From Cyanidioschyzon merolae (taxonomy: Eukaryota), in the NCBI GenBank assembly GCA_000091205.1, contig AP006494.2: DNA of 64,000 nucleotides. One strand, 5' to 3'. Shown here one piece after another: positions 1-61,071 of this stretch (positions are counted from its first letter, which is position 1; the number at the start of each line of letters is the position of its first letter). The notes beneath the pieces were generated by a model. It was not told the DNA's origin. It ran no database searches and saw nothing but the letters and a program-made list of their open reading frames with translations. The position numbers and the translations under genes are program-made.

Positions 1-700
1 GGAGGATTTCTGGTACATTATATCGTCTCCAAGGAAACACGTATCGGAAGGAAGATCCAAGCTGGAGAGCCAGTCGAGAAATTTGAACCCATCTACGCTC
101 CCTTCGTGCAAAGCGTGGCGCTGTCTCCACTGGCAGCGACCGCTGCAGTGACCGAAGTTGGATTCCACGGCTCTTCCCGATGCAAACAGAGGATACGAGA
201 GTTTCCGGGGGCATACCCATTGGAGATATCTCGACACAGCCGGATGCCGTTTCGTTGATGGAAACGAAAAGAGGAGGAGTCGTGTTGCGGAAGTAATCGA
301 TTATATGACATGAGACGATCAGTGAACTTTTGGCTCGAGCTCGTAAACAAGTCTGCAGCAGTCATCGTCAGGTATTTTCCGTCGTCAACCCAGCGGTGCA
401 AATTGCTGCGCGCACCATTGACCTTGAAACAGAGGCATAGAAAGCCTGGAGTGTGCGCGATGTGAGCATGCTATACGTAAGGAAAGGCCAAGCGAGGAGG
501 CGTTTAGTTATGATTTGGGTCATGACGTCGATTAATTTACGAAGCCTTGATTGAAGGCTTCACGAACCATCACGATTCCGCTAACATCAAGAGTTCCGGC
601 GGGAAGGAGTCGAAGGATCCGCAACGAAATGACAACCGAGAATCCTAAAGCGCATATGAATCTTGGTCCCTTATTGCTGCACTTGTGGTGTTGAGGTTGC
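1..700 (-). mobile_element. Degenerate IS630/Tc1-mariner-like (DDE_3) transposon copy, truncated by the window edge
   Basis: ORF 93..401(-) reads DDGKYLT..SSSQKFTDRLMS..NGYAPGNSRI, parallel to DDDKYST..SSCQKFTDCVIS..GYAPGGSRRF of the 12152..12901 transposase relic. Nucleotides 60-120 and 285-330 align to 7560-7660 and 7840-7990 of the IR1-L copy (gctcccttcgtgcaa; gtgaacttttgg). Confidence 0.55.
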
Positions 701-2878: not shown

Positions 2879-3286
2879 CTGGATCTCGAATCTTTGGAGT
2901 TGGCTCGGTAAGCCTAATAATGGCACCCGCACGCTCGAAGGCTTAGTACTCTTGTTCATAGCAATCTCTGCTTTTATCTTAAATTAGGTCTCTCGGAGCG
3001 GCCCGCGAGATTAAGCTCCCAGAATCGACCTGAAGGAACGATTCCCTTTCTTCATGCCTTAAACTACCTGAATATGAACGAGATTTCCCGAAAATATGCA
3101 CGCTACTGGCGAGCTAACGACGGTGTGAACCACATCACATTTGCTGTACGCTCTTCTGTTTCCAAAGCGGTGGGCATTGGGTTTGATTGAAAAGTGCTAC
3201 AAAATGAAGAAATACATAACAATAAGTTATGGATTTTTTGAATTCATCTAGTATTTATCTTCGATCCTAGCCTAAAACAAACGTGA

Positions 3287-6935: not shown

Positions 6936-8326
6936 GATTAACGCACCACACTTTGTCAGACAAGATTTTTACGGGTCCATCGATTTTCCTCCAGCGCCCG
7001 CTTCCGAGTTGGGGTTTCTTCGCACAATCATCGATACCTGCTGTTGGCGGCTTGTTCCGAGACTGCCTACCTTTCCCTTATCTTGTCTCTGGCTATGAGT
7101 ACACCGGTCTCTCGTGCCTCATCAACTCCCAGATCTGATGTCGATGGATGCTGATGGCAGTGCAAGTCCCGATTACACCGCACGGGGATATTGTCGACGC
7201 ATTTCGTGCATTGGCAAATGTTGCAATGTATGCTTCATTTGCCATATTCACCTTCTTTGTATACAGCCCCTGTGCTCGCTTCGTAACGGCAACACAAGGC
7301 TATGCGTAGATGAGACCTTATCCTCACCACAACTCATCCTCCAAGCGCCACCGCGTGGCGCGTGAGCACTTGATTCAGCGCTCGATACATGCCCCCGAAG
7401 GGCACAGAGTCCTCCCTGGATGCTCTTCGCGACATCTGCAACCAGTGCTGCACCGCACGACGACGGGTTTCTTCTAGGCGACAAACTCGGCGAGTACGCT
7501 GTCCAACGGGCGCGTAGGCGCACATTGTCCCATTCGATAGCGGATTTGTGGAGAGCGATGTCGTCTAGTGTGAAACAAGGACCAGAAGAAATATCGACGC
7601 TGGAGATCGAGTCCAGAATATTCTCTCCATCCGCGCTCCCTTCGTGCAATAGAGTTGCATAGTACCCATTGGAAGCGATCATTAGATAGCAAAGGCGAGT
7701 CCGAGACCATTTTGGATGCAAAGCGAAGCGACGGGAGCCTCCAGGAGCATATACCATGAAAGGTATCAGGCTGTGTGGAATCCCGCGACATCGATGGACA
7801 CAAGGCAACATGGTTTGTCTTTCTGACGGACATTATCATCGGATATGACACAATCTGTGAACTTTTGGCATGAGCTCCTGATCAAGTCGTCAAGGAACCT
7901 GGTCGAGTACTTATCATCGTCAATGCAGCGGAGCGCGTCCCTGTGCCCGCGAGCTGCCTTGAAACAGTCAGACCGAAAGCTTGGGGAACTCATGATTTGG
8001 ATATGCTTGATGCAGGAAAAGCGGAGGAATGGAGGCCTTTGGATAAGAACTGCATAATGGTATCGGTTATTTTACTGACGTGGGGTTGAGGGCGTCGCGA
8101 ATCATCGTGGTTTCGACGAATTAACGGATTCTAGCGACAGGAAGGGACTGCTCCGAAAAGATGACCAGTATCGTAAACCAAGGAAAGAGTGCGTAAGTCC
8201 GCATTGATGTGCTTCGAAGGTCAAGGCTGTTCATCTAGAAAAAGCTGGGGAAAGAACGGAAATACAGGAGGAGAGCGAAGAATTCCGTGTTCTGTTTTGA
8301 TCTGACATGAGAAGGAAGCGTAGCTT
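6936..8326 (-). mobile_element. IR1-L: ~1.39-kb copy of a degenerate DDE_3 (IS630/Tc1-like) element, inverted partner of 11824..13225
   Basis: Reverse-complement identity with 11824..13225 (coordinate sums 20145-20149, a few small indels). Identical ORFs 7845..8057(+)/12088..12300(-) and 7114..7365(+)/12784..13035(-). Outer junction near 6936 (taacgcaccacactttgtcagacaag). Inner end includes atctgacatg at 8300-8309. Confidence 0.75.
7248..7993 (-). pseudogene. DDE_3 transposase pseudogene (frameshifted relative to the right-arm copy)
   Basis: ORFs 7766..7993 and 7248..7811 together parallel 12152..12901 but are split by a frameshift, with small indels (HSLIPFMVYAPGG vs HNSLIPFMGYAPGG). Confidence 0.7.
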
Positions 8327-11823: not shown

Positions 11824-13225
11824 GGAAGCTACTTCCATGTCAGATCAAAACAGAACACGGAATTCTTCGCTCTCCTCCTGTATTTCCGTTCTTTCCCCAG
11901 CTTTTTCTAGATGAACAGCCTTGACCTTCGAAGCACATCAATGCGGACTTACGCACTCTTTCCTTGGTTTACGATACTGGTCATCTTTTCGGAGCAGTCC
12001 CTTCCTGTCGCTAGAATCCGTTAATTCGTCGAAACCACGATGATTCGCGACGCCCTCAACCCCACGTCAGTAAAATAACCGATACCATTATGCAGTTCTT
12101 ATCCAAAGGCCTCCATTCCTCCGCTTTTCCTGCATCAAGCATATCCAAATCATGAGTTCCCCAAGCTTTCGGTCTGACTGTTTCAAGGCAGCTCGCGGGC
12201 ACAGGGACGCGCTCCGCTGCATTGACGATGATAAGTACTCGACCAGGTTCCTTGACGACTTGATCAGGAGCTCATGCCAAAAGTTCACAGATTGTGTCAT
12301 ATCCGATGATAATGTCCGTCAGAAAGACAAACCATGTTGCCTTGTGTCCATCGATGTCGCGGGATTCCACAACAGCCTGATACCTTTCATGGGATATGCT
12401 CCTGGAGGCTCCCGTCGCTTCGCTTTGCATCCAAAATGGTCTCGGACTCGGACTTTGCTCATCTCAATGATCGCTTCCAATGGGTACTATGCAACTCTAT
12501 TGCACGAAGGGAGCGCGGATGGAGAGAATATTCTGGACTCGATCTCCAGCGTCGATATTTCTTCTGGTCCTTGTTTCACACTAGACGACATCGCTCTCCA
12601 CAAATCCGCTATCGAATGGGACAATGTGCGCCTACGCGCCCGTTGGACAGCGTACTCGCCGAGTTTGTCGCCTAGAAGAAACCCGTCGTCGTGCGGTGCA
12701 GCACTGGTTGCAGATGTCGCGAAGAGCATCCAGGGAGGACTCTGTGCCCTTCGGGGGCATGTATCGAGCGCTGAATCAAGTGCTCACGCGCCACGCGGTG
12801 GCGCTTGGAGGATGAGTTGTGGTGAGGATAAGGTCTCATCTACGCATAGCCTTGTGTTGCCGTTACGAAGCGAGCACAGGGGCTGTATACAAAGAAGGTG
12901 AATATGGCAAATGAAGCATACATTGCAACATTTGCCAATGCACGAAATGCGTCGACAATATCCCCGTGCGGTGTAATCGGGACTTGCACTGCCATCAGCA
13001 TCCATCGACATCAGATCTGGGAGTTGATGAGGCACGAGAGACCGGTGTACTCATAGCCAGAGACAAGATAAGGGAAAGGTAGGCAGTCTCGGAACAAGCC
13101 GCCAACAGCAGGTATCGATGATTGTGCGAAGAAACCCCAACTCGGAAGCGGGCGCTGGAGGAAAATCGATGGACCCGTAAAAATCTTGTCTGACAGAGTG
13201 TGGTGCGTTAATCGAGAAGAGTGAA
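11824..13225 (+). mobile_element. IR1-R: ~1.40-kb copy of a degenerate DDE_3 (IS630/Tc1-like) element, inverted partner of 6936..8326
   Basis: See IR1-L. Inner end 11824 lies 115 bp upstream of the epimerase ATG (11709, minus). Outer end near 13225. Confidence 0.75.
12152..12901 (+). pseudogene. DDE_3 (IS630/Tc1-mariner-like) transposase relic, 249-aa ORF, catalytically degenerate
   Basis: LVSIDVAGFH (DExGF-like first Asp box, Glu replaced by Val). GYAPGGSRRFALHPKWSRTR (YGWapkGerp-like). CFTLDDIALHKSAIEW (vlDNasiHKs second Asp box). WTAYSPSLSPRRNP (LPPYSPDLNPIE box with the catalytic Glu lost). N-terminal HTH region absent or disrupted. Confidence 0.7.
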
Positions 13226-14700: not shown

Positions 14701-15094
14701 TGAATGTAGTCCTCCTTGCACTTCTCAGTAAAGAGTATATCCTATGGGCAACTCGTCAACGATCTATGCTGTACACTGCATCATGATTTCGATCATCTGC
14801 TTTACACTGGGAAAAAGCATAGATTACGCATAGCGGGGGTGAAATATATTTGATTTGAAAGACTAATAAGATCGTTGTCTGGTGCCGATTGCAATTAAAT
14901 TTGAGTAATATTTCCACCCAACACTGGGTTCGCGTGAAGGTTGCGAGAAGGGCTACAAGAGTTAAGCTCTTTCGAACTGGAGATATTCACCGTGGATCTT
15001 TCAGGTCCAAAAGGATATAAAAGAGCGCTTGAAGACATCTCTTCGTGCTTGCTATATTTGAAAGAGTCAAATATGAGAACTAGTATTTAGTTTA

Positions 15095-16822
15095 CATTCA
15101 GAGTACTAAATTCTTGAACAAGTCTACCGGCAGGTTATTTTTGTGTTTGGTTGTTTTTCCCACAGGTATTGAACAATAAGGTTGTCCGTTGGTGAGAGAA
15201 TGGCGGTGGATAGAGTTCATGCCATCGCCGCTAGCATACCGACACGGATCTTACTTGTACAAGTCAGTCATTTTACATTCAGCAGGTGCACCAGCGACCC
15301 TTGTGGCAGTGCTTGTTCTGAACATTGCGTACCCAAAATACAACGTACTACAATGTATATATTCGACAATCTTCTGATTCGCTCATTGTATCACATAGAT
15401 CCTCTGAGAAATACCATCTGCGAAGCCACATGATGTGGGGCTTTCACATCTTTCATACTAGCGGTGATAAACAGACACCGATGAACAGAAAAGTGCGCTG
15501 CGATGCACGACGATTGCGTGTTGCCAGCAGATTGTCGAATTCGCAGCGCAAGGCGAAGGCCCGCTGCAGGACTGACTGGCGTTCGTGTCAGTCGGTGATG
15601 CTCCATTTTGCAGAAACGATCAACTCGTATATATGTCCTCACATAGGGGCGACACGAAGTTCTTAAAGAGGCGACAAGCGACATTGAAGGCGGCATGAGC
15701 CCTAGCGGTGATTTCTTCTGGTGATCTCTTACAAATCGCCGAACGAAAGGACATTCCAATACCTCATCCTCCGGCGAGGCACCTCCTGGATTCCTTCACC
15801 CACATTCCTTGGTAATGCCCTTAGACAGTATTGCTTTCCCTCGCTAAACAGCGCTCAGGCAGTATGCAGCTGTATCTGTCGTTGAGCTGCCCTACTTTTC
15901 CAGAGATCGGCAGTGTCGGGAGTCGGGCCCCAGAGACGCCAAGAGGCGTACCGACCAATGAAATGACAGCGTCCGGACCCGTCACGACGCTCTGAGACTC
16001 GTGTCGAACGGAGTGGATGCTGTGTGAGATCCATTCATAGACACGTGCGCGTCCACGTGGCTCGTGGGGACGCTCCCTCGCAGATGCACTTGAGACGTCG
16101 CTGTGGTCATCAACAGCTTGGCTCTCCGGAGGCAGGAAGCGTGCATTCTCCAGCATATTCAATGAGTTAGCAACGTATCGGACCGATAACTCGCAACGCG
16201 TGGAGGTAGCGAATGGCGCTGGACGTGCACTCGCGAGCAACGGCTGCACTCATGCTCGGTCGGCGAGAGCGTGCAACCACAGCAGGAATCGATTCTTCAC
16301 GGCTCCCGTGGATGCGTTCAGAGCGACAAACACGCGTGACCAGCGCGAGTGCGCACAGTGACCGGTAGAGAAGAAGAGTGTGAAACAGAGCTGCATGCAC
16401 GTGGTGGTGTACGGTGAGCTGATTGAGCGCCGGATGGCGAGAGAATCGAGCGAGACGTGCTTGCTGTGATGCGCTTCAACAATCCAAAATGCGCTCAGGC
16501 ACGTCCTGCACCGAGACTCGAACGCCCAATCGGTATCTGGAAATGTTTCGTGCGTTCGGAGCGTCCAGCGGTTTGTGTCATACGTACATTCGAGGCAACT
16601 GTTTCATACTGAGTGTGGGGATTGTGCTGGAATGCTGGAGACTTGCGCTGAGAAAATCAGAGGCTGGCAGCAATAGGAGCGGATTCCGGCATGTAGCAGG
16701 GCAATAGTATGGTACGGTTAGGAATCCAGACAGGATGTGGCACAGCGTATATAGAGAGGAACCTGTTTCCCATGGTAGTTGGTAGACGATGCTAGTGTTT
16801 CTCTCTTTAAGATGCTATTGAT
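15095..16822. repeat. IR2-L: 1.73-kb arm of a near-perfect inverted repeat (partner 23683..25410)
   Basis: Reverse-complement identity; coordinates sum to 40505 with no indels over all checked stretches. Four ORF-track ORFs are identical on opposite strands and a fifth differs by one residue (AAGL/AGGL). Boundaries are where similarity decays (15095/25410 outer, 16822/23683 inner). Confidence 0.85.
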
Positions 16823-17463
16823 TATAGAACAGTTTACAAAGCTTGGGTTCTGAAATTCTCACGTTGATTTGTTCATTAATTGTCTTGTCGACTCCAACGA
16901 GCTCTTCGAGTGCTGTGCTAAATGAATCGATACTTCTTCAAGACGAAACATAGCATAGTGCTTTCAAGATGCGAGGTCTAGTACACTATTCATGTACTTC
17001 TGCATACAATGGAACTCCAAGACCGTGGGCACTTTTGGAGGTATCTGATTTCATTTTCGAAGTACCCCTGGCGGCGAGGGTTGGTGTGATCCGATTCAAT
17101 ACCCGTTCTAAAACGTCATTCAGGAGAAAGTCTCGCGAGAGTATTTCAGGTGTTTGATCGGCTAGTTGCTCATGGGTGTTATTGGGTATGCAGCTGTCCC
17201 AGTGAAATCGTCTGTGAGCTCTCGAAACAACTAAAGAAGCGGAGTACTTCGTAGAGTCCCATGACGAAAAGCATGCCTTGTCAAGCTGTGTCCGATGCTT
17301 CCCTTCTTCTTTGCTCGGTAACCGGTGCTTTATACACAAGAAGTTCATGTTTTCTAATTCAGTCAACGATGCCCATTAAAAACCAGGGAAGCATACTGAA
17401 AACTAGCGCATTCTAGCATGGATAAACAATTATTGTTTGGAGCGAAACGACTTGAGAAAAAGT

Positions 17464-22780: not shown

Positions 22781-23682
22781 CTGCTACAACGAGCGTTCCT
22801 CTGGTGTGCGACACCGGCAGGATTTACATCGGGCGCAGAGCCTCTCAACAGCGTGAGGCGGTTTTATGTCTCAAATGCCGGTGCGAGCCGTTCAAAGCAA
22901 ACATTTTGCATTGAGGAATACTACACTGCCAGCATCTTGTTCATAATAGATTCATGACACCGAGGAGGTTTCGTAGAGAATACGTGATAAGAGTCTGAGC
23001 ACATTCCTGAGGAGTTTGCGCTACATCGGTGTGCCGTATGGAGCATTTTATGGACGGAAAAGTATGAGGGCACGAAACTTCAGAACCTCGAATCAAACTG
23101 CAACATATCTACAAACTGTCAAATAGGACGTCCACTTGCCTTGTCTCTATTCTTCTACAGGTAACAGGGACTGATGCAATGAATTTTTAGTGGCGTATTG
23201 GAATCCGGGCCGAATATCCAAAGAGGCGCTGGATGCTCGATTTCCAATCTGTAGCCGCGCATCCGGGCAAGGTTGCTCGGAAAACCGGTCTATTTCGGCA
23301 GCAGTCCGCAGTTCGCGACCTCAGACATTGCGCGCGGACTACACACTAGAGCAGAGCATGCGGCTGGCCGCCCTGCATCCTGATGCAACCACAGACGCAG
23401 TAGGTAGCCTCGACAACAATAGACCGAAGCGTTGCGCATCAAGGCACTTTTGGTGGTTGCTCGCGGACGAAAAATTTTATCCCAGTTTTTCCACTTAAGA
23501 TCGTATGAACACGAGATTCCCAACCAACATGCCTAATAACAACAAGAGATAGAGCAAATCTATCACAGAATTTGAATTATGAAGGTCTTCATTCGATGTG
23601 AAGCTTTTACAAGCGTTATAAACACCTGCGGATTCGAACGCATATACTGTTGCTATCAAAAGCGTCTGATACATATCCTACA

Positions 23683-25410
23683 CTCAATAGCATCTTAAAG
23701 AGAGAAACACTAGCATCGTCTACCAACTACCATGGGAAACAGGTTCCTCTCTATATACGCTGTGCCACATCCTGTCTGGATTCCTAACCGTACCATACTA
23801 TTGCCCTGCTACATGCCGGAATCCGCTCCTATTGCTGCCAGCCTCTGATTTTCTCAGCGCAAGTCTCCAGCATTCCAGCACAATCCCCACACTCAGTATG
23901 AAACAGTTGCCTCGAATGTACGTATGACACAAACCGCTGGACGCTCCGAACGCACGAAACATTTCCAGATACCGATTGGGCGTTCGAGTCTCGGTGCAGG
24001 ACGTGCCTGAGCGCATTTTGGATTGTTGAAGCGCATCACAGCAAGCACGTCTCGCTCGATTCTCTCGCCATCCGGCGCTCAATCAGCTCACCGTACACCA
24101 CCACGTGCATGCAGCTCTGTTTCACACTCTTCTTCTCTACCGGTCACTGTGCGCACTCGCGCTGGTCACGCGTGTTTGTCGCTCTGAACGCATCCACGGG
24201 AGCCGTGAAGAATCGATTCCTGCTGTGGTTGCACGCTCTCGCCGACCGAGCATGAGTGCAGCCGTTGCTCGCGAGTGCACGTCCAGCGCCATTCGCTACC
24301 TCCACGCGTTGCGAGTTATCGGTCCGATACGTTGCTAACTCATTGAATATGCTGGAGAATGCACGCTTCCTGCCTCCGGAGAGCCAAGCTGTTGATGACC
24401 ACAGCGACGTCTCAAGTGCATCTGCGAGGGAGCGTCCCCACGAGCCACGTGGACGCGCACGTGTCTATGAATGGATCTCACACAGCATCCACTCCGTTCG
24501 ACACGAGTCTCAGAGCGTCGTGACGGGTCCGGACGCTGTCATTTCATTGGTCGGTACGCCTCTTGGCGTCTCTGGGGCCCGACTCCCGACACTGCCGATC
24601 TCTGGAAAAGTAGGGCAGCTCAACGACAGATACAGCTGCATACTGCCTGAGCGCTGTTTAGCGAGGGAAAGCAATACTGTCTAAGGGCATTACCAAGGAA
24701 TGTGGGTGAAGGAATCCAGGAGGTGCCTCGCCGGAGGATGAGGTATTGGAATGTCCTTTCGTTCGGCGATTTGTAAGAGATCACCAGAAGAAATCACCGC
24801 TAGGGCTCATGCCGCCTTCAATGTCGCTTGTCGCCTCTTTAAGAACTTCGTGTCGCCCCTATGTGAGGACATATATACGAGTTGATCGTTTCTGCAAAAT
24901 GGAGCATCACCGACTGACACGAACGCCAGTCAGTCCTGCAGGGGGCCTTCGCCTTGCGCTACGAATTCGACAATCTGCTGGCAACACGCAATCGTCGTGC
25001 ATCGCAGCGCACTTTTCTGTTCATCGGTGTCTGTTTATCACCGCTAGTATGAAAGATGTGAAAGCCCCACATCATGTGGCTTCGCAGATGGTATTTCTCA
25101 GAGGATCTATGTGATACAATGAGCGAATCAGAAGATTGTCGAATATATACATTGTAGTACGTTGTATTTTGGGTACGCAATGTTCAGAACAAGCACTGCC
25201 ACAAGGGTCGCTGGTGCACCTGCTGAATGTAAAATGACTGACTTGTACAAGTAAGATCCGTGTCGGTATGCTAGCGGCGATGGCATGAACTCTATCCACC
25301 GCCATTCTCTCACCAACGGACAACCTTATTGTTCAATACCTGTGGGAAAAACAACCAAACACAAAAATAACCTGCCGGTAGACTTGTTCAAGAATTTAGT
25401 ACTCTGAGTA
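23683..25410. repeat. IR2-R: 1.73-kb arm of a near-perfect inverted repeat (partner 15095..16822)
   Basis: See IR2-L. Outer end is 52 bp upstream of the HIG1 ATG (25462). Confidence 0.85.
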
Positions 25411-25461
25411 TAACGCTGAGCACCTCCCTAACTATACTGGGAGCGAGCTGTTTTTCGAGAC

Positions 25462-40487: not shown

Positions 40488-40779
40488 GAAAATACGGGTT
40501 TTAGCGGTGCCCTCGTGGGTGCCCCGTTTGAACTAGAACAATCGATCTTTTTGATACAATCGTATACAGGGGTCTTACAATTTTTCAACTCGATCCTGTT
40601 TCACCTCCGTAGTGTTTTGCAGCAGGAGATCGAAATCTCTGTGCAATGTACCCTATAGGTCTTATACGAATCGCTTGTAGGATATATGCTTTACCATATG
40701 GTGCAAGGAGGCTTGGATTCCTCCAGCGGCTCAGTCATACCACAGTACTCTGATGCTCGAGGAAAACTGAAAGTAGCAA

Positions 40780-42060
40780 GTATATGCGCTCTGTGCGAAC
40801 TCCGATATTCTCAAAGACTGCTTGCGATCAACGGCACGGAAACAACCCGCTGATCACCTTAAGGAATGCAAGTATGATGACAGTAGCCGCCCTAGGTGTC
40901 TATGTTTCTCAACAGCATGTTCGTGTAGTCTGTAAAACACTGGGACAGAATCACAAAAAGTCTTGCTAAACGCACTGCCATCTTCCACCGGAATCGCAAC
41001 GACAGTGTTCCTGGAACGTCGCTATCCGTTTAAAGCGTAGGGATTTCGGTTTTGGTTTTACAGTCGACGAGACTTTTTTCGGGCGAAATGGACAGTACAT
41101 ATTTGAGTATTCGCGGAGAAGCGAGCCCGTTGTATACCCGACGGAACCCGAAGAGAACTCGGATATCATTATCTGTTCTAACTGCAGTGCATATACTTGG
41201 CGGCCTCAGTCCCGCCCTTAGACAAGGCTCAAATAATAGCACGCAATACGCCGAATCATAGAAGACTCTTCCCTGACATCTTGCGACGTTATTGTATTGG
41301 AAAACGTGGCATTGCGCCATTCCACTTGCGTTCGAGCTTTTGCAGAATCTATCGGGGTGGAGCTGTTTTTCATTCCGCCATTTACCCCGTGGCTCATCTC
41401 CATCGGAGGAGTGTTTTCTATCGTGAAACGGAATGACCGTTTCGCTGGGTGGATCGCTGAAGTGTTCAGCACACGGTAACACCGCGGCTATTTGTCTTTC
41501 TTCCACAAGTCCTTTTCCCTCCGGAAAGGTCTTCACGCCAGGACATCAACAAGTGCATTCATTCGAAGAAGTAAAAAATCCAAGAGAAAGCTATGGACAT
41601 GGAAGGCGAGGATCCTGGAAGCCGTGTGTCGCCGGCTTCGACCAAAAACGAAAAAATCCTCTCCTCGCCGACCATTGAGCGAAGAAGAGCAAATAACGAA
41701 GATGGAAAAGGGAGATATGCGAGAAATGGTGTTTGCCCAGCGGGACGATGACGAGGCTGTAGGCACACAAAGGGCATGAGTTTGAGGAGTCCTCGCAAAG
41801 ATGCGTTCAACCAGCGGCTAGAACCGCATGGAGTTCATGAACCGAGACTCGAAAGCTGCTACGAATATCAGGAGATATGCGGTGCTGAAGACGAGACCCG
41901 CGGGGCTGACAAGAGCGAGCCAACTTTCTGGGACAGCCTCTCAGACTCGAAGTGTGCAAGGAAAAGCTGAAGCCGATAGCAGGGACCCGGTCAAAGAAGG
42001 CCGGAACGCGTCTGTGAGTAAATATATACATTTATCCTCATTGTTCTTGGGACATTTTTG
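40780..42060 (+). mobile_element. TnpB/Fanzor-like element relic, copy B (inverted relative to copies A and C)
   Basis: 41828..42061(+) reads EFMNRDSKAATNIRRYAVLKTRPAGLTR, the RuvC-III D-x-NAA-x-NI motif. 41433..41678(+) ICLSSTSPFPSGKVFTPGHQQVHSFEEVKNP parallels copy A ICLSSISPYPSEKVPTQRHKRVRSFSKIRN. 41030..41536(-) EPCLRAGLRPPSICTAVRTDNDIRVLF parallels copy A GPCLRARLTPQNIPTAARIDNDFVLIEF. 41533..41766(-) RILAFHVHSFLLDFLLLRMNAL parallels copy C RVLEFHIHSFPLHFFLLQMNAI. Confidence 0.5.
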
Positions 42061-42186
42061 AACATTTTGATCCCTTACCTGCCGCCGCGGTGCAATTTCG
42101 CAGCTCGAAGCTTATCGGAGTCGCCTAAATTCGCGTGCGACGTTTTTTGCGCGAGGTGCAAGTAAACTTCAGAAAAGCCACGAGTA

Positions 42187-44034
42187 ATGCGTCATGATGC
42201 AGGACTTGCTCTTCCCTTCGTGACCACTGTCAACCATCTTTTCGCTGCAGACCATACCGCGCCAAAGTTGCGTTCGGGCTTAGCTTGCGCGCGGCTCAGC
42301 GGGCCTGCAGACCACCGGCGGCGGCGTTGCTCGCTGTCGCCTCGCGCGGCACGGACGCGTGCACCCAGCTTTGGACGGCATGCCAGCATGGACTTGGGGC
42401 AACCCTCAGACACGAAGACCGAGGACTCATTAGGGAAAGATAAGGCGGAGAAAGGACTACAAAAGATCCGTAGGGCTTTAGTTTCTGTATCGGACAAGGC
42501 ATCTTTGCGAGAGTTTGCGCAGTTTCTGGTTGGCCACAATGTTGAAATCATATCCACGGGCGGTACGGCAGAGAAACTCCGCGGCTATGATGTGCCCGTA
42601 ATAGATGTCAGTGAGTATACTAGCTTTCCAGAGATTCTTGACGGGCGCGTGAAGACCCTGGTTCCTAAAATTCACGGAGGTATCCTGGGTGTTCGCGGTA
42701 ACGCCTCACACGAAGAAGCGATGAAGCTCCACAGCATCGAGTACATTGATCTTGTTGTGGTGAATCTGTACCCTTTCGAAGAGACGGTGCGAAACGACGG
42801 GAGCTATGAAGCATGCATCGAGAATATTGACATTGGGGGACCAACGCTCATCCGAGCTGCTGCGAAGAACCACGCGAGCGTAACCGTCGTCACTGACGTC
42901 CACCAGTACTCAGACGTTATGGCTGATATGAATGATCATGATGGGTGTACAACTTTGTCCCTTCGGAAACGCCTTGCGGCTGTTGCGTTCTCTCTCTGTG
43001 CGTCGTATGACAGCTCGATTGCGGCGTGGTTCATGGAGGGTCTCGGGAAGCCGTTTCCGGACCGAATTACGATAAGCGGACGTTTGAAGCAGCGACTGCG
43101 TTATGGAGAGAATCCTCATCAGCCAGCTGCGTTTTATATGGACATGAGAGGAACGATCTGTCCAGGCGTTGCAACGGCCGAACAGGTTCAGGGCAAAGAG
43201 CTTAGCTACAATAACATCCTGGATACGGATGCGGCGTTCCGTCTCGTGAGCGAGTTTACAGAGCCCGCATGTGCGATTATTAAGCATTCTAATCCCTGCG
43301 GTTGCGCCACTGGTGTCTCGACCGAAGATGCCTACCTGAGGGCTCTTGCCTGTGACCCGATTTCTGCTTTTGGCGGTATCGTTGCGTTGAACAGAAAGAT
43401 TGATAAAGCAGTTGCAGAGCAGATCACCAAGGCGTTCACTGAGGTGGTGATCGCGCCAGATGCATCCGCGGAAGCTTTGGAGGTTCTTTCTGAGAAGAAG
43501 GCGACCAGAGTTCTTCTCACGGGAGCTATGCCGGATCCGCGGGCGCAACTGCAGAGTTTTCGATCAGTCATGGGAGGCTTTCTTGTCCAGGCTCTGGATA
43601 CGAAGATGGTTACAACGGAGGAGCTCAAGATTGTTACCAAACGCACCCCCACGGAAAACGAAATGCGCGATTTGCTTTTTGCCTGGAAAGTTTGCAAGCA
43701 CGTCAAATCGAACGCAATTGTTTATGCTAGAGATGGAGCCACTGTCGGCATTGGCGCGGGACAAATGAGTCGCGTAGATGCATCGAGAATTGCAGCCTGG
43801 AAAGCGCAGGAAGCCTCGCGCCAGGCCGAGGAGGATACTAGTCGCACGGCTGGATCTGTCGTCGCCTCTGATGCCTTCTTTCCTTTCGTGGATGGGCTTG
43901 TTGCCGCGGCGGATGCCGGCGCAACCGCCGTGATTCAACCAGGCGGGTCCAAGCGTGATGCGGAGGTTATCGCTGCTGCCGATGAACGAGGGATTGCGAT
44001 GGTCTTTACCGGTATTCGACACTTTTTACACTGA
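42187..44034 (+). CDS. purH: Bifunctional purine biosynthesis protein PurH/ATIC (AICAR transformylase / IMP cyclohydrolase) with ~95-aa N-terminal extension
   Basis: [64 protein letters not shown] (MGS-like IMPCH domain), then an AICARFT domain through the C-terminal GGSKRD..FTGIRHF. ATG start. Confidence 0.9.
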
Positions 44035-48957: not shown

Positions 48958-51285
48958 TTATGGTGCCACTCGAAGGGCGTTCCCGGATGCTTTAGCGGTT
49001 GCCCTCTCACCTGAGACGTACATTTCATCGATGACATGGGCGTACTTTTCTTGTACGACACGGCGCTTAACTTTCAGGGTTGGGGTGAGCTCGCCGCCTT
49101 CCACGGTAAGCTCGGTGGGAAGGATTCGAAAGTACTTGATCGTTGCATACGACGGCAGTGTCGCGTTCACTTCATCGATGTAATGCTGAATCACATCAAT
49201 GATTCGCTTATCTCTGGAGAGTATATCGGGGCGAGACTCCGTAGATTCTATGCCAATCTTAGAGGTCAACGCCGGGAGCGCACCCTCATCTAGCGTAATC
49301 AGTGCAGTGCAGTACGGTTTTCCGTCGCCAATAACCACTACTTGGGCTATGCCGTCGAACGTTTTAAGCCGCGCTTCTGTTGGCTGAGGCGCGATGAATT
49401 TCCCGCCTGATGTTTTAATCAGATCTTTCAGGCGATCGGTGACAACAAGATAGCCGTCCTCATCGAAACTCCCAACATCACCGGTGTGCAAGAACCCAGC
49501 ATTGTCAATAACTTGGGCAGTACCTCGTGCATCATTGTAGTAACCAGCGAAGACGTTATCGCCTTTCGCGAGGATTTCTCCATCCGCACCAAGAACTACT
49601 TGAATCCCACGGAGGGGCAGGCCCGCGGTCCCCGGCTTGATGGCGCCTTTTGGCGTCAGCGCGATGACACCCGTGCTCTCGCTCTGGCCATACAGCTCCG
49701 CGATGTCGATACCTATGCTCCGGAAGAAGCGTGAGATCTCTGGATTCAGCGGCGCTGCTCCCGAGGCGAACGTATGACATCGATCGAGCCCAAGCAGCGT
49801 CAGGATTTTGCCAATGATGTGCTTCTGGTAGAGGCGCCACTGGACGGTGGTCCAGATGGCTGGCCGTTGTCCGCGTATGCTGTTGCGACACTCACCAATG
49901 GATGCGCCGTTTCGGAGTGCCTGGCTGATGACGGCGCGTCGAAGGAGCGCCTCCGAGGCGAAGCGTTGCTTGAGCGCGGACGCAAACTTTTCCCATACCC
50001 TTGGCACGCACAGGAACAGGGTCGGACGCACCTCCGCCAGGTTGTTCTTCACTGTAGCAAAGCTCTCCGCAAAATAGACGGCATTCGCATCATAGATAGC
50101 AAGCAATTCACCTTGAATGCGCTCCGCGATATGGCAGAGTGGGAGAAACGACAGTGTAATATCGCCGCCGTTTGAACCTACACAACGGGATATTTCCTCT
50201 GCAATGAAATAAAGGTTGCGATGTCGATAGCATGCTCCCTTGGGTTTTCCCGTTGTCCCCGAAGTGTATACGGTCATGCAGATTGCCGACGGCAAAATGG
50301 CTCTCGCTTGGCGTTCAATGTTCGTTGCTGCGCTCTCAAAGTGCCGTCGGCCTTTTTTCAATAGTTCGCTCCACGAAATATTTTTCCAGTGTGGTTTCCG
50401 ACCGCATCGAGGCGAAACTTCTCGTGTGGTATCATTCATGAGCACGACGAGCTGAAGCTCCCCAAGCATTTCCGCAGTATCTAGCAGCTTTGCGTACTGC
50501 ATTTCAGAGTCCACGAAAACAACTTTCGCTCGAAAATTCTCACAGACAAACGCAACTTGCTCCGCTAGATCGTTCGGATATAGACCGGTGGTACAGCCTG
50601 CAAGACACATGACCGCCAGGTCCGCGATAAGCCATCTGGGTGAGTTCGAACCCAAGATGGCAGCGTGGTCGCCGGCCTCGAACCCGCATTGCCTCAGGCC
50701 GTTAGCGATTTGACAAACCAGTCTACCGTACTCCTTCCACGAGATGGATACCCATCCGTCGCCTTCTTTCGATGCCAGGGCAGCAGAATCCGCACAGTTT
50801 CTCCGAATCCCATGAGCATTATCGAAAAAAAGGTTCAATAAGGTTTTCGTTCTAGTCTCCTCTTGAGTAAGCGCGAGTTGTGGGGGCTGCTCTCCCTGTA
50901 AACCGGGAGAAAGGAACGAGTCGCTTGGAGACCCTTCAGGATTCTGCGTGAAGATTCCTGCAAGGAATGGAGCTGCATTATTCGGCTTCTTCGAATCTTC
51001 AACCTTGCCTAACGTTCGCTCACGAGTTACCCGATGCGCCATGTTGTACGACCTAGACGCTGAGCCCTGAGGCGTCTGGAACGTGTTCTGTGCCCTGGGC
51101 TGCAACCACAGCGACGCAAGCGTGTCATTGCCGTGCTGTTCGCAATTTCCCTGCACGCCCAGGTGAAGGTTGCTGCTGAGCGATCGCATAGGCGCCGGCC
51201 CCGGTGTCGGGCTTGCTGCAGGGGTAACAAAAGCATAACCAGAGTCACTTGGCACGTCACTGGTACGAAAATGTTTCATAACCAT
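48958..51285 (-). CDS. Long-chain fatty-acid-CoA ligase (acyl-CoA synthetase, AMP-binding superfamily) with low-complexity N-terminal extension
   Basis: YTSGTTGKPKGACY (AMP-binding P-loop), FLHTGDVGSFDEDGYLVVTDRLKDLIKTSGGKFIAPQPTE (motif II/III), length and linker typical of LACS. ATG at 51285; the true start could be a downstream Met (homology begins after ~aa 150). Confidence 0.85.
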   Translation of the reverse strand: MVMKHFRTSDVPSDSGYAFVTPAASPTPGPAPMRSLSSNLHLGVQGNCEQHGNDTLASLWLQPRAQNTFQTPQGSASRSYNMAHRVTRERTLGKVEDSKKPNNAAPFLAGIFTQNPEGSPSDSFLSPGLQGEQPPQLALTQEETRTKTLLNLFFDNAHGIRRNCADSAALASKEGDGWVSISWKEYGRLVCQIANGLRQCGFEAGDHAAILGSNSPRWLIADLAVMCLAGCTTGLYPNDLAEQVAFVCENFRAKVVFVDSEMQYAKLLDTAEMLGELQLVVLMNDTTREVSPRCGRKPHWKNISWSELLKKGRRHFESAATNIERQARAILPSAICMTVYTSGTTGKPKGACYRHRNLYFIAEEISRCVGSNGGDITLSFLPLCHIAERIQGELLAIYDANAVYFAESFATVKNNLAEVRPTLFLCVPRVWEKFASALKQRFASEALLRRAVISQALRNGASIGECRNSIRGQRPAIWTTVQWRLYQKHIIGKILTLLGLDRCHTFASGAAPLNPEISRFFRSIGIDIAELYGQSESTGVIALTPKGAIKPGTAGLPLRGIQVVLGADGEILAKGDNVFAGYYNDARGTAQVIDNAGFLHTGDVGSFDEDGYLVVTDRLKDLIKTSGGKFIAPQPTEARLKTFDGIAQVVVIGDGKPYCTALITLDEGALPALTSKIGIESTESRPDILSRDKRIIDVIQHYIDEVNATLPSYATIKYFRILPTELTVEGGELTPTLKVKRRVVQEKYAHVIDEMYVSGERATAKASGNALRVAP

Positions 51286-52640
51286 CGAGTATATATATAC
51301 CTACCCGCAGACGCCTCCCAGCCTTTTTACCTCTCGACTGTTATATCGGCTTCAGCCTGGCCTCGTAGATCCTGAGCCTGAGTCGCTGCCTCACAGCATC
51401 GGATCGCGTCAGCGCCGTAGGTCTCGTCTTCATCGGCTGAAATCGATGGTGGCGTTGAGGTCTCGGTTCACGAACTCTGTGCACTCATGGCCTCTGGTGG
51501 AACTCATCAGTGCAAGGAGTCCTCGAACGCATGCCCTCTGTGCGACTAGGGTCTCGTCATCGACCCGTCGGGCAAACGCTTTTTCTCGCCTATCTACTGC
51601 CTTCCTCTCCTTCGTGCTTTTCGTCACTTGCTACTTTTTGCCTTCGATGGGTGATGAGAAGAGGATTTTTCCGTTTGTTTTCGGCAGCGGGCGATACCGG
51701 CCCTCCAGGGTCCTCGAATTCCATATCCATTCCTTTCCCTTGCATTTTTTCTTACTGCAAATGAATGCAATTCCCTACGCCTTTAGGTGGGGACATTTCT
51801 GGAGGGGGGTGGCTTTTGCGGAAGAAAGATGAATTATAGCCCGCTGTCGCCGTGTGCTGAAAGCTTCAGCGATTCGCACAGTTGAGCGATCTTTACCTTT
51901 CTCGATATGAAAGACTTATCTGATGAGGTTTAATCACGTAGAGTACGGAGAAATGAAAAGCAGCTCTACCCCAACACATTCGTCGAAAGCTCGAACGCAA
52001 GAGGAATGGTGAAATGCTGCGTCTGACCGTAGAGGGACGCCGCCAAAGGTCAGAGGAAAGTCTTCTATGATTCGACAAAGTGGGTGCTGTTGTACGTGCC
52101 TGCTCTACGGGTGAAGCTGAAGGAGCCAAATCAATCCACCGCAGCTCGAACAGAGGATGATGTTGTCGTTCTCATCGTGCTCGATCGGACCTAGAACGAT
52201 CTCCCTCTCCGCGAATGCCCAAACATGCACCGGCCGTTCCGTCCGACGCACGTCTCATCGACTAAAACGCACGAACTGACGTCTCTCTGCTTTATACGGA
52301 TAGCGACGTTTCAGGAACGCTGTCGATGCAATCACGATGGACGATGCCCTTGGGTGAGTTAGGACTCTTCTGCGACAGTGTCCCAGGGTTTCCAGGACCA
52401 TAGGAACAAGCTGTTGAGAAAACGGAGACACCTGTGACGGCTATGACCATATCCTTTGCTTTTCTTAAGATGATCAACGTGTCGTTTTCTACCATTGACG
52501 GCAAGCAGTCTCTAAAAATATCTGTATTTGCCACAGAGCGCACATACTTGTTTCTTCCATTGTTCCTCAATCATCAGAGTCCTGTGGTATGACGGACCTG
52601 AAGGAGGAATGCTGTCCTCCATGGACACTTCAGTAACGAA
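51262..52640 (-). mobile_element. TnpB/Fanzor-like element relic, copy C
   Basis: 51430..51627(-) RACVRGLLALMSSTRGHECTEFVNRDLNATIDFSR (C-x-x-C then D-x-NA-x-I). 52292..52570(-) MVIAVTGVSVFSTACSYGPG (RuvC-I-like hhIGVDLGVxxFATLSDG with Asp lost). Blocks at 52066 (ctatgattcgacaaagtgggtgctgttgta) and 52480-52630 align to copy A. The 3' tail (rc of 51262-51440) aligns to the tails of copies B and D. Confidence 0.5.
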
Positions 52641-52924
52641 CATACCCCACAGGCAATTCGTCTAGAATCTGCAGAGTATATTACATAGGGATCCCGATCT
52701 GCTGCGATGCAACGCACCAGGAGTGAAACAGAATCGAGTTGACAGTCTCCAGTTCTGGGACGGGGATAACCAGCGGCTATGGTCTAAGCTGTTGCAGCTG
52801 CGACTGCGTTCCAAATACCTATAAGCTCGGAGGCCGCCCTGGAACGTGCTACTGAATGAGCGCTTTAGAGGTAAGCTGAATGATTTGTTACGAGTCTGTT
52901 CCCTGTTGCGCTCTGTAGCGCCTC

Positions 52925-56488: not shown

Positions 56489-58462
56489 TTTTAGAGAACT
56501 TTCAGTAAGAGTTCTTGAATATGTCCCCAATGGAGCAGGTCGAAGTTTTTCCTCGTCAATCCAGTGACGTGCATTGCTGCGTCCGTGGATCACATTGAAA
56601 GAGAAAGATCCAAAACTTGAAACGTATTTGATTTAAGCATGCCAAACCTGAGAAAAGGAGAAGCGTGGAGACTTGTACGTAAGCATTGAATGCTCGATTT
56701 CGGTCATTCGACGAGCCCTCCTTTGGGGGCATCGCAAATCATCTCGGATCCCGCAAATGAAAGAGTTCCGGCGGCTACAAGTCCAGGGAGCCACCCAAAA
56801 ACGCCTCCGAGAATCCCAAAACTATTATTGAATTCGTAAGCACGCATGGCTTCACTTCGAATGCCGAGGCCTTACATCCGAACAGAGTTCGAGAAATCGA
56901 AAACCATGAAGAGAGCGAGCAGTGCTCTCTTCCATTTTGATAGAACCCGGGTCATCGATGCCAAAAACTCGGTGCAGCACTTTCGGATTGTATGCAGCTA
57001 TGCACCCAGTTGCTTTCGAGAAAGCGTCCATTATGCTGCACTCTACCCTAAGGTTCCATTACCCATATTTTCTCTCGGAGGTAATGGTCGTTTTGTACGT
57101 TCTATGTGCGCCAAGTGCATGCCGTGAACATCCGCTGTATGGCCTAAACCGCTAGTGCGGATGCAGCATCGGGACAGTACGGCTTTGCCTTACAACTGAG
57201 GTCGTCGGCTCGAGGCGTGCTGCTCTTGACACAAGGTCGGGATTCATAATCATTCTGGGAGCCTGCAATCTGCGCTGATAGACGTCCTGCCTGCGACAGC
57301 GCGAAGCGATATACTAGGAGATGACTGCATCGTGGGCGACGCCCAGACGCAGCACATCCGCTCCTTGCCCCAGTATAAACGGCTTCGCAGACGAGCTGCT
57401 CAGGTCTCACTATAGCGCAAGCCACTGCCGAGTCTCACTGTAGCGCGAGCCAGGCAGCCTCGTCCGGGTTGCGGGATCTCCCTACTGGAAGGTATACTTT
57501 CGCGAATGCGGCAAACTTTTTCCTCTTCTCACTTTTACCGAAGAGGTGGGGATTGTTATCTCGTCGCTAGTTTGTGCCTAGTTTCTGTTCTTTTTTCTAT
57601 AATGCGCTCGATACGTGCACATCCATATCTCGCAGGCATTAGACACGACGCATATCTCACCGCTGATGGGAAACGCGACCCCTCTCAGATGTAGACTCGC
57701 ACCGGAAACACGCGAAGCAGCATGTGGAGCATGCACTGTTGCTGGGGACGAGGTCCATGTACGACAACATCATGGTCTACCGATATTAAGCGTGTTGCTC
57801 TAACGCATGCTTTCTATTTGCGTTCAAGTCCTAGCAAAATATAGTGTTTGTTCGGAATTCTGCTTCAGCCCACATGCGAGCGTGTCCAAGAGTTTTTTCG
57901 TTTTTTTAGCATACGCGTTCGAAGTGCGCTCACTTTCAAAAATCAAAATTCAAGGAAAAGTTACGGACATACAAGTCCAGGATCCTGGAGGCCCAGTGTC
58001 GCCAGGTTCGACACGAAATGAAAAACAATGCTGAGTCCAGAGGAACAGGAGAAGACGAAGAAGCAGATGCAGGAGGCCAGGCGTCAAAAGCTGCATGAGA
58101 AGCGACAGTATGACGAGATGGCAATGGAAGCCTTTCTTCTACGTCAAATAAATGATCCGTACGAACAAAAGTTGCGAGAGGCTATCAGAAACCGTGTCGA
58201 GTCGTACTCCATGAGTATTATCAAGGCTTCGTCTTGGCTAATGCGTAAGGTGAGTAAGATGTACCATGACGTTACGGGCATCAAAATAGTCGAGGTTCCG
58301 GAGGAATTTTTCAACAAGACATTTGCTCGCCACCCCATGTTTGGCACAGAGTAGGCGTCGACGAGAAATGAGCGAGTGCATGCCCTCTACGAAAACCACG
58401 CTGAGTACCGCTTCAACGGTATTCGATACAGGGGTGATTCGCGTATTCACGAATAGGGAGCA

Positions 58463-59137
58463 ATGCAGTGCGCTACGAACCTGAGGCACCAAATGATTAT
58501 GAACCTCGAACGTTTCGTGATTCGCTCCATCTTTGCGCTGTACCCGGGCCTCCCTCGTAACGGGATATGGAACACTACCAATGCCATCACAAACGGTTGC
58601 CAGCATGAAGATGAGATCGAATTCTTCAGCAAGCAGACATTGCACATTATCAGGAATGAAGATTCTGTTATCCGTGGGGCTGTTCAAGAGCACCGTGCGG
58701 TTCTTTGGCTGGTCAACCAAATAGAAAAGGTATCAGATATGAGAAAAGATGGAGAAGGATGTCGTCCCCTCATCCTCTGCTTTTTCGTGTTTTTGGACCG
58801 AGAAATCGAACGCAAGGCGGAGATGGAGCTGGGTGTGGGTAAAAAGGAAGAAGCAGAGAAACGGAAGGTTGCGCTTCTGAGGAAGCGCCTCAGTGTCGTT
58901 CCGTTGTTCAACATCAAGTCACATTTTGTGACAATCGACTCCGCAGCCCTTTACGTCACCATGAAGGAGATCAGTCCGGAGTTCGATGTGAGGAAGATAG
59001 AATTCACCGGTGAAAACCGGGAGACGTACTGTAAGAATATCTTTGATTTCAAACGTCTGAAAAAAATACGAAAAAGATATTCACAGGGACGATCGACAGC
59101 GATGGAGTATCCATATGCGTACCCTTTCGGCGCTTGA
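58463..59137 (+). CDS. Hypothetical protein (224 aa) in an AT-richer stretch
   Basis: ORF only. The competing antisense ORF 58238..58720 makes strand assignment uncertain. Confidence 0.2.
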
Positions 59138-59599
59138 AGACAGATTGTCCTATTCCACCCTCGATATCGCCCGTGACGAAGCATGAGGATAGGAAGGAGG
59201 CGAATCTGGCGACGCAGGAGGTGCAGGAGAACGACTTTGTTGGAGGCGCGGGCCCTAGGAACATGAATATCATAACCACCGCTGCACCCAAGTGTGCGGA
59301 AGATGGAATCGACGGCAACATACGTTAGAAAGACATGCGTCTGTTAAAGCTCTCAAGAGCGAGATATTACCGAGATTCGGGAATAATGAATACGAGGAAA
59401 AAGACTGAGACGTGAAATGCAGGAGGGAATGAGCACTTGGAGGCGCTCAGCCCGGTACCTCTCAACGGAGCGGACTTTCAAGCTTTTCTAGAGTTCATGG
59501 AAACTCGTGCTGCTCATGACGAGGAGCTGTGGAAAGAGTGTACAGAGCACCGGCGGGCTCGTCAGCGTATGAACCTGTATAGAGGGGGCAGCATGCATT

Positions 59600-60185
59600 C
59601 GCCAAGATCATGAGTCAGTTGAGCGCCCTCAAGGAAGACGAGAGTCAAAAGCTCGTAGTAGCATATCTAGCAGGGCGCTGGGCACCCAACAAAGGTAGCA
59701 TACCCACTTCGTCGACGCGTGCCTACGTGAAGTGCGCACGCCGTTTTTTCCCAGTACCGATGGATGACTTTCGAAAATCCGACCCACACTACGAGTTGGG
59801 GGTGCATACTTCAGAGCTTAGGGATGGAGCGCAAGCAGCAGTGCACGAGAGCGATAGAAAAGTACGAAGAGCTGACGGAGCAGGAAACTGCACCGAGGAC
59901 CCGAGTTCGAGGTCTCCTTCCAACGGCGCGTTCAACCAGCAGCAATTAAATCAAGGAGTTCGTGAACCGTGACTTTCATGCTGCTATCAATTTAAGACGA
60001 TGTTCGGTGTTAAAGACGAGACCCGTAGGGCTGACACGCGCGATCCAACTCTGTGGGGCACCCTCTTAGTCTCAAGATGGTACAAGGAGAAGCAGGAACC
60101 GATCGCAAGCGCCTTGTCAAAAATGGCCGGAAATCGTCTTTGAGTGGGCGTGTCTAAATATACTCCATGATTGTAGAACGTTTAT
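59600..60185 (+). mobile_element. TnpB/Fanzor-like element relic, copy D (3' part, frameshifted)
   Basis: 59764..59949 frame gives TRVRGLLPTARSTSSN; manual translation of 59950-60056 gives EFVNRDFHAAINLRRCSVLKTRPVGLTRAIQLCGAP. The 3' tail aagacgagacccgtagggctgacacgcgcgatccaactctgtgggg...caaggagaagcaggaaccgatcgcaag...ggccgg aligns at ~75% to copies B (41880-42050), A (rc 13400-13650) and C. Confidence 0.5.
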
Positions 60186-60219
60186 CGTTTTGCAGAACAA
60201 GCTGAACAAACCTCACGGG

Positions 60220-61071
60220 ATGCCGTCCCCGCTCCACGACTACGGACATACGTCAAGGCCGCAGCGGTTTGCGCGTTACCACTGCGCGTACTGCAAGTGC
60301 GTGCGCGACGGAGTCTGCACGACGCTTTGCGAACACGTTGGAGCTCTCTGCGTTCTATTGCTTCTCTCTGAAGGTGTTCACCTCACTATCGTTCTTTCCG
60401 AAAGTTTTCGCAGCAGCCTCTTGTTGCCTTTGAGAATGAGTCGGGATAACCAAGGTTTGCAACCACAAAGTCACAGCACGGCGTTCTGTGTGTTTGCGCC
60501 GTGGCCTCGAAACCGGAGTGCGGCCGGGACGCAGCGCGACCTGCGAGTCGGATGTCAGCGCTGGCCCCGTTTTTCCGCAGGTGGTGTCTCCATCTCCGCA
60601 GAACACGCCCAAAGGGAGAGGACGCTGAGGTCTCTGAAAATGGCTGACATTGGCCGTAAAGGACCCGGCAAGATTGGAGGCAAGCCAGCAGAGTTCGCCC
60701 CGGGCACGGGAGCAGGTGCTCCCGGCGGTGACGAGTCCGGGGAACGAGAACGAGAAGGTGGGGGCGTTGCTGTCATCACAAAGACGAAGCCAGCCGTTCG
60801 AGAAAAAGAAAAGACGGCAAAAGAGCCGATGTGGCGTGTTTTACTGCACAACGATAATATTCACACGTTCGACTATGTTACACATACGCTCGTCAAAGTG
60901 GTGAAGACGTTGACCCGCTACAAGGCCCACCGTATTACAGTGCATGCTCACAAAGCCGGCGTCGCAACGGTTACAACGACCTGGAAACAACTCGCAGAAG
61001 AGTACTGCCAGGGACTACAACGCGAGGGCCTCACAAGCAGCATCATGCCGGACCACTCAGGTACACAGTGA
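60220..61071 (+). CDS. clpS: ClpS-domain protein (ATP-dependent Clp protease adaptor ClpS-like) with long N-terminal extension
   Basis: C-terminal [64 protein letters not shown] matches the ClpS core ([43 protein letters not shown]). Track start 60190 is a TTG; first ATG is 60220. Confidence 0.75.

Follow-up and report, generated by a model that had tools for sequence, protein, structure and literature searches.

The annotated start codon of an acyl-CoA synthetase in Cyanidioschyzon merolae lies within the 3' tail of a decayed Fanzor1 element

In a stretch of 64,000 nucleotides (nt) from the red alga Cyanidioschyzon merolae (contig AP006494.2 of assembly GCA_000091205.1; hereafter the window), the open reading frame (ORF) of a long-chain acyl-CoA synthetase (LACS) begins inside a degenerate copy of the Fanzor1 transposon CMe-1, which we call relic C. 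This copy, a non-autonomous, internally deleted member of a family of eukaryotic TnpB homologues, precedes the plastid-type synthetase gene in sense orientation. Comparison with eight other copies shows, at the level of the aligned sequences, that the first 11 codons of this ORF (51285-51253), including both of its upstream in-frame ATGs, are the 3' tail of a CMe-1 element. We consider it moderately probable that one of these two ATGs (51285 or 51279) now starts the synthetase, which would thereby carry an N-terminal extension derived from a transposable element (TE). The ancestral start codon persists a short distance downstream, shifted by one base against the conserved reading frame.

The start of the open reading frame within a transposon tail

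The product of the ORF is identical to BAM80796.1/XP_005536832.1 of C. merolae 10D, which carries the database name 'probable long-chain fatty acid coenzyme A ligase' and is encoded on a chromosome of 859,119 bp; the annotated start is thus the ATG at 51285-51283, as the original prediction had it. An in-frame TAG stands 6 codons upstream of this ATG, and the next ATG upstream is more than 113 nt away. The original prediction had further proposed that the reverse complement of 51262-51300 aligns with the terminal blocks of other copies of the element in the window, and we find this to hold: the minus strand from 51300 to 51262 reads gtatatatatactcgATGGTTATGAAACATTTTCG, and the corresponding block of copy D, a near full-length element, lies at 60156-60187. 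The Fanzor ORF ends in a conserved ..GG(A/G)AGGCGTCTG in the consensus and in all copies, with TGA directly after it in copies B and D, and the terminal block starts 20-30 nt beyond this end.

To these copies we added others from metagenomes. A scan with GAGTTCNTGAACCGNGNC was of low specificity and returned mostly unrelated contigs, but four useful contigs of C. merolae type (L050, L061, L066 and L089) provided at least five further copies with a tail of the window type (one on L050, two each on L066 and L089) as well as two copies near the published CMe-1A consensus. A hidden Markov model (HMM) was built from the tails of the five non-window copies only, taken beyond the conserved GGCGTCT anchor, with the window sequence left out. 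The top match of this model in the whole window is 51311-51252 (25.0 bits, E = 7e-7), an alignment that crosses the annotated ATG. When both strands (128 kb) were searched without a target region, a sub-model restricted to the part from the ATG onward placed its top match precisely on 51285-51253 (8.5 bits, E = 0.2). These two results together indicate that the block is transposon sequence. The tails, which are about 65-75% identical in pairwise comparison, align as ..ATACTCGATGGTTATGAAACATTTTCGTACCAGTGACGTG in relic C, ..AACCTCGATGGTTATAGAGCTGCTCAGTTTCACTGATAGG in L050, ..CACTCTATGGTTGAGGGACATTTTTTTGCTTCATTGACATG and ..CTCTCCATATTCNGAAACCGCTGTTCGCTTCACTGACGTG in one copy each of L089 and L066, and ..ATACTCCATGATTGTAGAACGTTTATCGTTTTGCAGAAC in copy D, and an ATG at the start position is kept in six of the nine copies compared (the four of the window and five among the matches listed). 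Homology to other tails extends to about 51253, within codon 11. Hence the transposon origin of the ATG and of the codons that follow it, as originally proposed, is upheld by the nine-tail alignment and the HMM, but the extent given there, about eight codons ending at 51262, was too short.

Table 1. Features of the synthetase start, of relic C and of the related copies in the window
Feature	Position	Strand	Remarks
Long-chain acyl-CoA synthetase ORF	48958..51285	-	775 amino acids (aa)
Annotated ATG	51283..51285	-	context tactcgATGg; within transposon tail
Second in-frame ATG (codon 3)	51277..51279	-	context atggttATGa, purine at -3; transposon-derived too
Codons 1-11, MVMKHFRTSDV	51253..51285	-	homologous to 3' tail of CMe-1 copies
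Codons 12-17, PSDSGY	51237..51252	-	about 16 nt matching no other copy; presumed former 5' untranslated region (UTR)
Vestigial ancestral start codon	51234..51236	-	now frame +1; opens 69-codon junk ORF
AFVTPAAS codons (residues 18-25)	51211..51234	-	conserved transit-peptide-like start of orthologues
Met33	51187..51189	-	possible alternative start, in frame; context gcgcctATGc
Met82	51040..51042	-	in frame; context tacaacATGg; taken as start by metagenome gene callers, giving 694-aa forms
TATA-like palindrome GGTATATATATAC	51289..51301	-	in tail, 4-16 nt upstream of ATG 51285
Anchor GGCTGGGAGGCGTCTG	51308..51323	-	last conserved Fanzor1 codons (..AGRRL); CGG in relic C where B and D have TGA
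RuvC-III remnant EFVNRDLNATIDF of Fanzor1 ORF	51439..51477	-	
Fanzor1 N-terminus remnant MDMEFEDPGGPVSPAA	51702..51730	-	consensus MEKEVEDPGGPVSPAA
Relic C	51253..52742	-	internally deleted, degenerate CMe-1 (Fanzor1)
Copy A	13455 to ~14436	-	partial copy carrying tail block
Copy B	40585..42073	+	internally deleted like relic C; tail ends about 115 nt before PurH (ATG 42187)
Copy D	56956..60198	+	near full-length CMe-1A; tail block present

Orthologues, the displaced ATG and the history of the locus

In the 775-aa protein, Pfam detects PF00501 (AMP-binding) at residues 162-583 (E = 5.4e-60) and PF23562 (AMP-binding_C_3; E = 1.6e-12). Judged from its domains and relatives, the gene encodes an ordinary long-chain acyl-CoA synthetase of the AMP-forming type, preceded by an N-terminal region specific to Cyanidiophyceae. 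The red-algal orthologues measure 723-736 aa against about 618 aa in bacterial relatives, indicating that all of them carry an N-terminal extension; it comprises about 100-130 aa in all Cyanidiophyceae orthologues and opens with a transit-peptide-like M-x-[A/G]-F-[V/L]. The earlier remark that the first ~150 residues are without AMP-binding homology is therefore correct for the Pfam domain but incomplete, since the extension is common to these orthologues. Their N-termini read MGFVAAGSS in Cyanidium, MNAAFL, MNVAFL or MNTAFL in Galdieria, and MVFQ[P/A]GFVVPSAA in Cyanidiococcus, and the C. merolae counterpart is YAFV at residues 17-20. Plastid transit peptides of red algae form a family defined by a Phe motif close to the N-terminus. 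In the PurH orthologues (42187-42250 in the window; L011 17634-17813; L012 11721-11900) an [A/P/S]FV[T/S] motif occurs at about residues 10-17 (e.g. ..PAATAFVTPIGG), which suggests that the Phe motif of putative Cyanidiophyceae transit peptides is not always found at residues 2-4 and that a 17-residue prefix need not abolish targeting.

Two orthologous loci, those of Cyanidiococcus and Cyanidium, were checked at the DNA level. Neither has any homology to the relic, and downstream synteny (L5, PurH) is kept in both, so that the insertion appears to be lineage-specific. The original prediction had named orthologues with the same N-terminus and no relic upstream as the finding that would speak against it; these two relic-free genes do not share MVMKHFRTSDVPSDSG. 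At the start, the DNA reads gcgtATGGGTTTTGTG in Cyanidium (MGFV), agttATGGTTTTCCAAGCAGGCTTTGTT in Cyanidiococcus and ggttATG-CTTTTGTT in C. merolae, where the ATG at 51236-51234 and the TTT GTT of the AFVTPAAS frame are shifted by one base relative to each other. If one G is restored after this vestigial ATG, the sequence becomes MAFVTPAASPTPGPAP and reads MAFVTPAAS. The DNA beyond the start (TTTGTT..CCT..GCNGCAAGC) is about 79% identical to Cyanidiococcus, with one in-frame 3-nt indel, and the 16-17 nt between the transposon end and the vestigial ATG (51252-51237) bear a loose CAAG..TCT..GTTATG match to the Cyanidiococcus leader.

Two short repeats were observed around these sites. The 8-mer TGGTTATG occurs twice on the minus strand, 43 nt apart, at 51284-51277 in the tail, where it spans both transposon ATGs, and at 51241-51234 in host DNA, where it holds the vestigial ATG; the repeat may be accidental or may reflect microhomology where the element inserted. 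The 9-mer CAGTGACGT at the end of the relic C tail (51262-51254) is also found about 60 nt upstream of the Cyanidiococcus synthetase ATG (L011 9920-9935), which is probably coincidental, because TGACGT is a common bZIP-type promoter motif.

The history that we favor for the locus would run as follows. A CMe-1 element would have inserted in sense orientation about 17 nt upstream of the original ATG, into a divergent intergenic region of originally just about 200 nt. The two ATGs of its tail would at first have opened a 53-codon upstream ORF (uORF) overlapping the true start out of frame. A deletion of 1 nt in codon 2 (ATG GCT TTT GTT to ATG-CT TTT GTT) would then have swapped the frames, putting the old ATG out and the transposon ATGs in. 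Translation from 51285 or 51279 would add 17 residues, 11 from the transposon and 6 from the former leader, before AFVTPAAS, giving an N-terminus composed of MVMKHFRTSDV (transposon), PSDSGY (former leader) and AFVTPAAS... (ancestral). No intermediate haplotype was found among nine C. merolae-type contigs. Nor is there any sign of recurrent start-codon donation by the tails in L050, where the ORF begun by the tail ATG has about 70 codons and is unlike a gene, and in L089, where it stops after 18 codons.

Before the synthetase can be said to start in transposon DNA, the shared block itself has to belong to the element. A chance resemblance between the ORF start and other tails is a very improbable explanation, the least probable of those considered here: the 24-nt coding part taken alone gives marginal values in local alignments to the other window tails (p = 0.19 for A, 0.023 for B and 0.029 for D), but the HMM from independent copies aligns across the ATG, its sub-model finds the predicted coordinates as the top match in 128 kb, and CTCGATGGTTAT of relic C is identical in L050, so that chance is effectively refuted. 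Only slightly less improbable is a host origin of the block, either as a preferred insertion target or as host DNA that other copies picked up by transduction at the synthetase locus. Such an origin could draw on the poorly defined ends of CMe-1, an element without known terminal inverted repeats (TIRs) or target site duplications (TSDs) (PMC3627910), on the loose similarity between the block and the 5' terminus of CMe-1A, CGATGMCAAAAC, and on the 9-mer in front of the Cyanidiococcus gene. It is opposed by the fact that the block is contiguous with the end of the Fanzor ORF in all nine copies, which occupy unrelated loci and include copy D, a nearly complete element that cannot derive from relic C with its internal deletion; by the divergence of the tails, which indicates that the block is old in the family; by its lack at the Cyanidiococcus and Cyanidium loci; and by a tentative and ambiguous alignment with the closing codons, TTGGAGACGTTTTGTC, of the ORF in the published consensus. 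The published consensus 3' end can be matched to the window tails in two ways, with the block fitting either TTGGAGACGTTTTGTC (ORF end) or GGCAGCGTTTTTCTTTTG (terminus).

Where translation begins is less clear-cut, and here the transposon ATGs compete with a start further downstream, in which case the tail would be only 5' UTR, the deletion would have destroyed the original N-terminus, the enzyme would be made from Met33 or Met82 and be mostly cytosolic, and the 775 aa would merely represent the longest ORF. We regard this as possible, though rather unlikely. Several observations nevertheless count against a start in the transposon, most of them pointing downstream. ATG 51285 has a pyrimidine at -3, and the best initiation context is that of Met82 (A at -3, G at +4), which the gene callers also picked (the 694-aa database forms reflect this choice of start on the same sequence). 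If the TATA-like GGTATATATATAC is a core promoter, its distance of 4-16 nt from ATG 51285 implies that the transcript starts downstream of both transposon ATGs. That codons 18-81 are open is not unexpected in a GC-rich stretch (p ~0.15-0.18); BLASTP does not align residues 1-81 with the N-terminus of Cyanidiococcus, only a short block being clearly conserved; the nine C. merolae-type contigs are without variation over 50600-51449 and hence uninformative on constraint; and the exact 3' end of the element (51258-51253) rests on four of the nine tails. A downstream start, in turn, has to contend with the out-of-frame ATG at 51236, which transcripts beginning between the transposon ATGs and Met33 would meet first, and whose 69-codon ORF overlaps Met33, ends 15 nt past the Met82 ATG and would depress translation of the enzyme. 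It also leaves AFVTPAAS in the frame of the long ORF, for which the ATGs at 51285 and 51279 are the only in-frame ones that keep the conserved N-terminus, and it has to accommodate a natural metagenomic variant (P0134) in which Thr replaces Met82 (M82T), which we count in favor of the transposon ATGs. Between a downstream Met and a TE-derived extension, which the original prediction had left side by side, the evidence leans to the extension, as AFVTPAAS is in the frame of the transposon ATG and the ancestral ATG is out of frame. The N-terminal region also varies in other metagenomic sequences, by L61V and K99N, and neither frameshifts nor stops were seen in the sequences examined.

Localization data bear on both starts. 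In the work of Mori et al. 2016 (PMC4928187 supplement), GFP was joined to the 'N-terminal extended sequence' of every LACS of C. merolae, and the CML197C fusion was found in plastid and cytosol. The synthetase gene is probably CML197C, because among the five LACS loci (chromosomes 5, 7, 12, 15 and 20) only chromosome 12 fits the 859 kb. Should the two be the same gene, the plastid fraction would argue for the N-terminal extension and the cytosolic fraction for a downstream start. A broader proposal, which we put forward tentatively and consider doubtful, is that the dead Fanzor1 supplied the whole 5' module, its tail giving the promoter-proximal region, the leader and the ATG, and that the deletion was selected, turning a harmful overlapping uORF into a chimeric transit peptide. 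If this were true, alternative initiation at the transposon ATG or at Met33/Met82 would explain the dual plastid and cytosol localization of CML197C.

Relic C, its family and other features of the window

Four copies of the element were found in the window by repeat finding and alignment. Bao & Jurka 2013 (Mobile DNA 4:12; PMC3627910) described CMe-1A, a Fanzor1 element present in C. merolae in about 150 copies; these share about 80% identity with a consensus of 3169 bp and have no TIRs and no determined TSDs. When we aligned that consensus, taken from their Additional file 2, to the window, copy D matched positions 55-3010 at 79-80% identity, and copies A, B and C aligned only to the first ~85 nt and/or the last 100-270 nt of the CMe-1A ORF (A to consensus 2743-3008; B to 885-969 and 2841-3083; relic C, through 51431-51528, to 2850-2950 at 73%), the identity being 72-80% over all four. 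The window copies thus resemble CMe-1A/Fanzor1 in the N-terminus MEKEVEDPGGPVSPAA, in the C-terminal EFVNRD.NA motif and in a divergence within the published range; they keep the fragments EFVNRD.NA.N (RuvC-III-like) and MD/EKE.EDPGGPVSPAA. They differ from it in several respects: the 5' region of A, B and C, about 1.1 kb long, is of another type; B and C have in common an internal deletion that joins the ORF N-terminus to the C-terminus; and in the window copies GGCGTCTG is followed by about 20 additional nt (..TATATACTCnATG..), and the consensus terminal hairpin (TGCCGCCA..TGGCGGCA) is missing. The two copies on L061 (5397-5828 and 10335-10735) are 84-88% identical to the consensus through its 3' end, including the terminal hairpin region, which suggests that consensus-type and window-type tails belong to two co-existing subfamilies.

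From the aligned sequences, B and C are non-autonomous, decayed derivatives. Searched for remnants of the Fanzor1 ORF (N-terminal MEKEVEDPGGPVSPAA, C-terminal EFVNRDFNAAINI), relic C has MDMEFEDPGGPVSPAAENKRK and EFVNRDLNATIDF; it has no intact ORF of 734 aa and, of the complete D...[TS][TS]..Zn-finger..RD motif, only the RD segment, its ORF being broken by the internal deletion, frameshifts and stops. Relic C is hence inferred to be non-functional, dead as a nuclease. The CMe-1 consensus protein has only a sub-threshold Pfam match to PF07282 (E = 0.52, residues 669-679), so that the Fanzor/TnpB assignment rests on Bao & Jurka 2013; a PDB sequence search with this protein and a Pfam search with the relic fragments gave no match. 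A structured guide RNA at the 3' end (omega RNA or fRNA), a trait of the RNA-guided nucleases TnpB and Fanzor, was not recovered from the tails: RNAalifold predicted no consensus pairs in the nine tails, the sequence 51440-51200 folded no better than its shuffles (z = +0.9), and the tail matched no Rfam family above threshold. In view of these results we did not retain a small hairpin just 5' of the ATG that had seemed to covary by eye.

Further observations concern the ends and the abundance of the family. The CMe-1A 5' terminus CGATGMCAAAAC... (consensus position 1; copy D 56956-56972) is loosely like the 3' tail block CGATGGTTATGAAAC... (51289-51267), and the motif AACGTTTATCG also occurs in a hairpin loop near consensus position 570, near the end of the TE-N2_CMe-like part; these motifs may mark, in direct orientation, the termini of an unclassified transposon. 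Copies B and C each take up nearly the whole of a short divergent intergenic region, relic C now accounting for 1490 of 1640 nt. Together the four CMe-1-type copies total about 7.5 kb, or about 12% of the window, which exceeds what one would expect from the usual figure of 0.7% TE content that reviews give for the C. merolae genome (PMC8504449).

Downstream of copy D, a ClpS-domain ORF (60190-61071) is open from 60190. Comparison with a 204-aa Cyanidium protein suggests that its true start is a later Met and not the first ATG near the copy D tail; this tail is not obviously next to the true ClpS start, which likely lies further downstream. The window also holds a perfect inverted duplication (15092-16827 / 23678-25413; 1736 nt, 100% identity, arms 6.85 kb apart) and a second one of about 1.4 kb (6925-8309 / 11836-13224; 99-100% identity, arms about 3.5 kb apart).

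Comparison with known systems

The gene model concerned belongs to an enzyme of lipid metabolism, in an alga that serves widely as a model, and its annotated N-terminus is chimeric; constructs and targeting predictions made from the annotated ATG rest on a predicted start. The locus also retains a legible trace of repair after a TE insertion near a start, with the old ATG, the 1-base deletion and the new ATG all visible.

As an enzyme, the synthetase resembles bacterial FadD15-type and plant LACS, likewise having the AMP-binding and AMP-binding_C_3 domains, and from residue ~150 to its end it is 36-38% identical to Variovorax FadD-like enzymes. Compared with these bacterial and plant forms, the Cyanidiophyceae proteins have an additional 100-150 aa at the N-terminus, and among the Cyanidiophyceae synthetases compared, C. 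merolae alone has the 17-residue chimeric prefix on this region.

Bao & Jurka 2013 do not describe a host start codon taken from an element, and we found no description of this instance, in which a Fanzor1 3' tail is the donor without splicing and a frameshifted ancestral ATG remains visible. A transposon-supplied host start codon is a known kind of exaptation; what is new here is the instance, and no new mechanism is involved.

The fusion of a uORF to a coding sequence by frameshift offers a second parallel, as the transposon ATG would open a 53-codon overlapping uORF before the deletion and the main ORF after it, with the difference that a single genome and two outgroups underlie the inferred order of events here. 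Start codons and N-terminal extensions derived from transposons, through TE exaptation or exonization, are known mainly from animals and plants. As in those cases, the host ORF begins within a recognizable TE and the TE-free orthologues start at the ancestral ATG. Different from them, a Fanzor1 3' tail acts as donor here, in a 16-Mb genome with almost no introns, and splicing plays no part; the ancestral ATG can still be seen, 1 nt out of frame; and the extension precedes a motif that resembles a plastid transit peptide.

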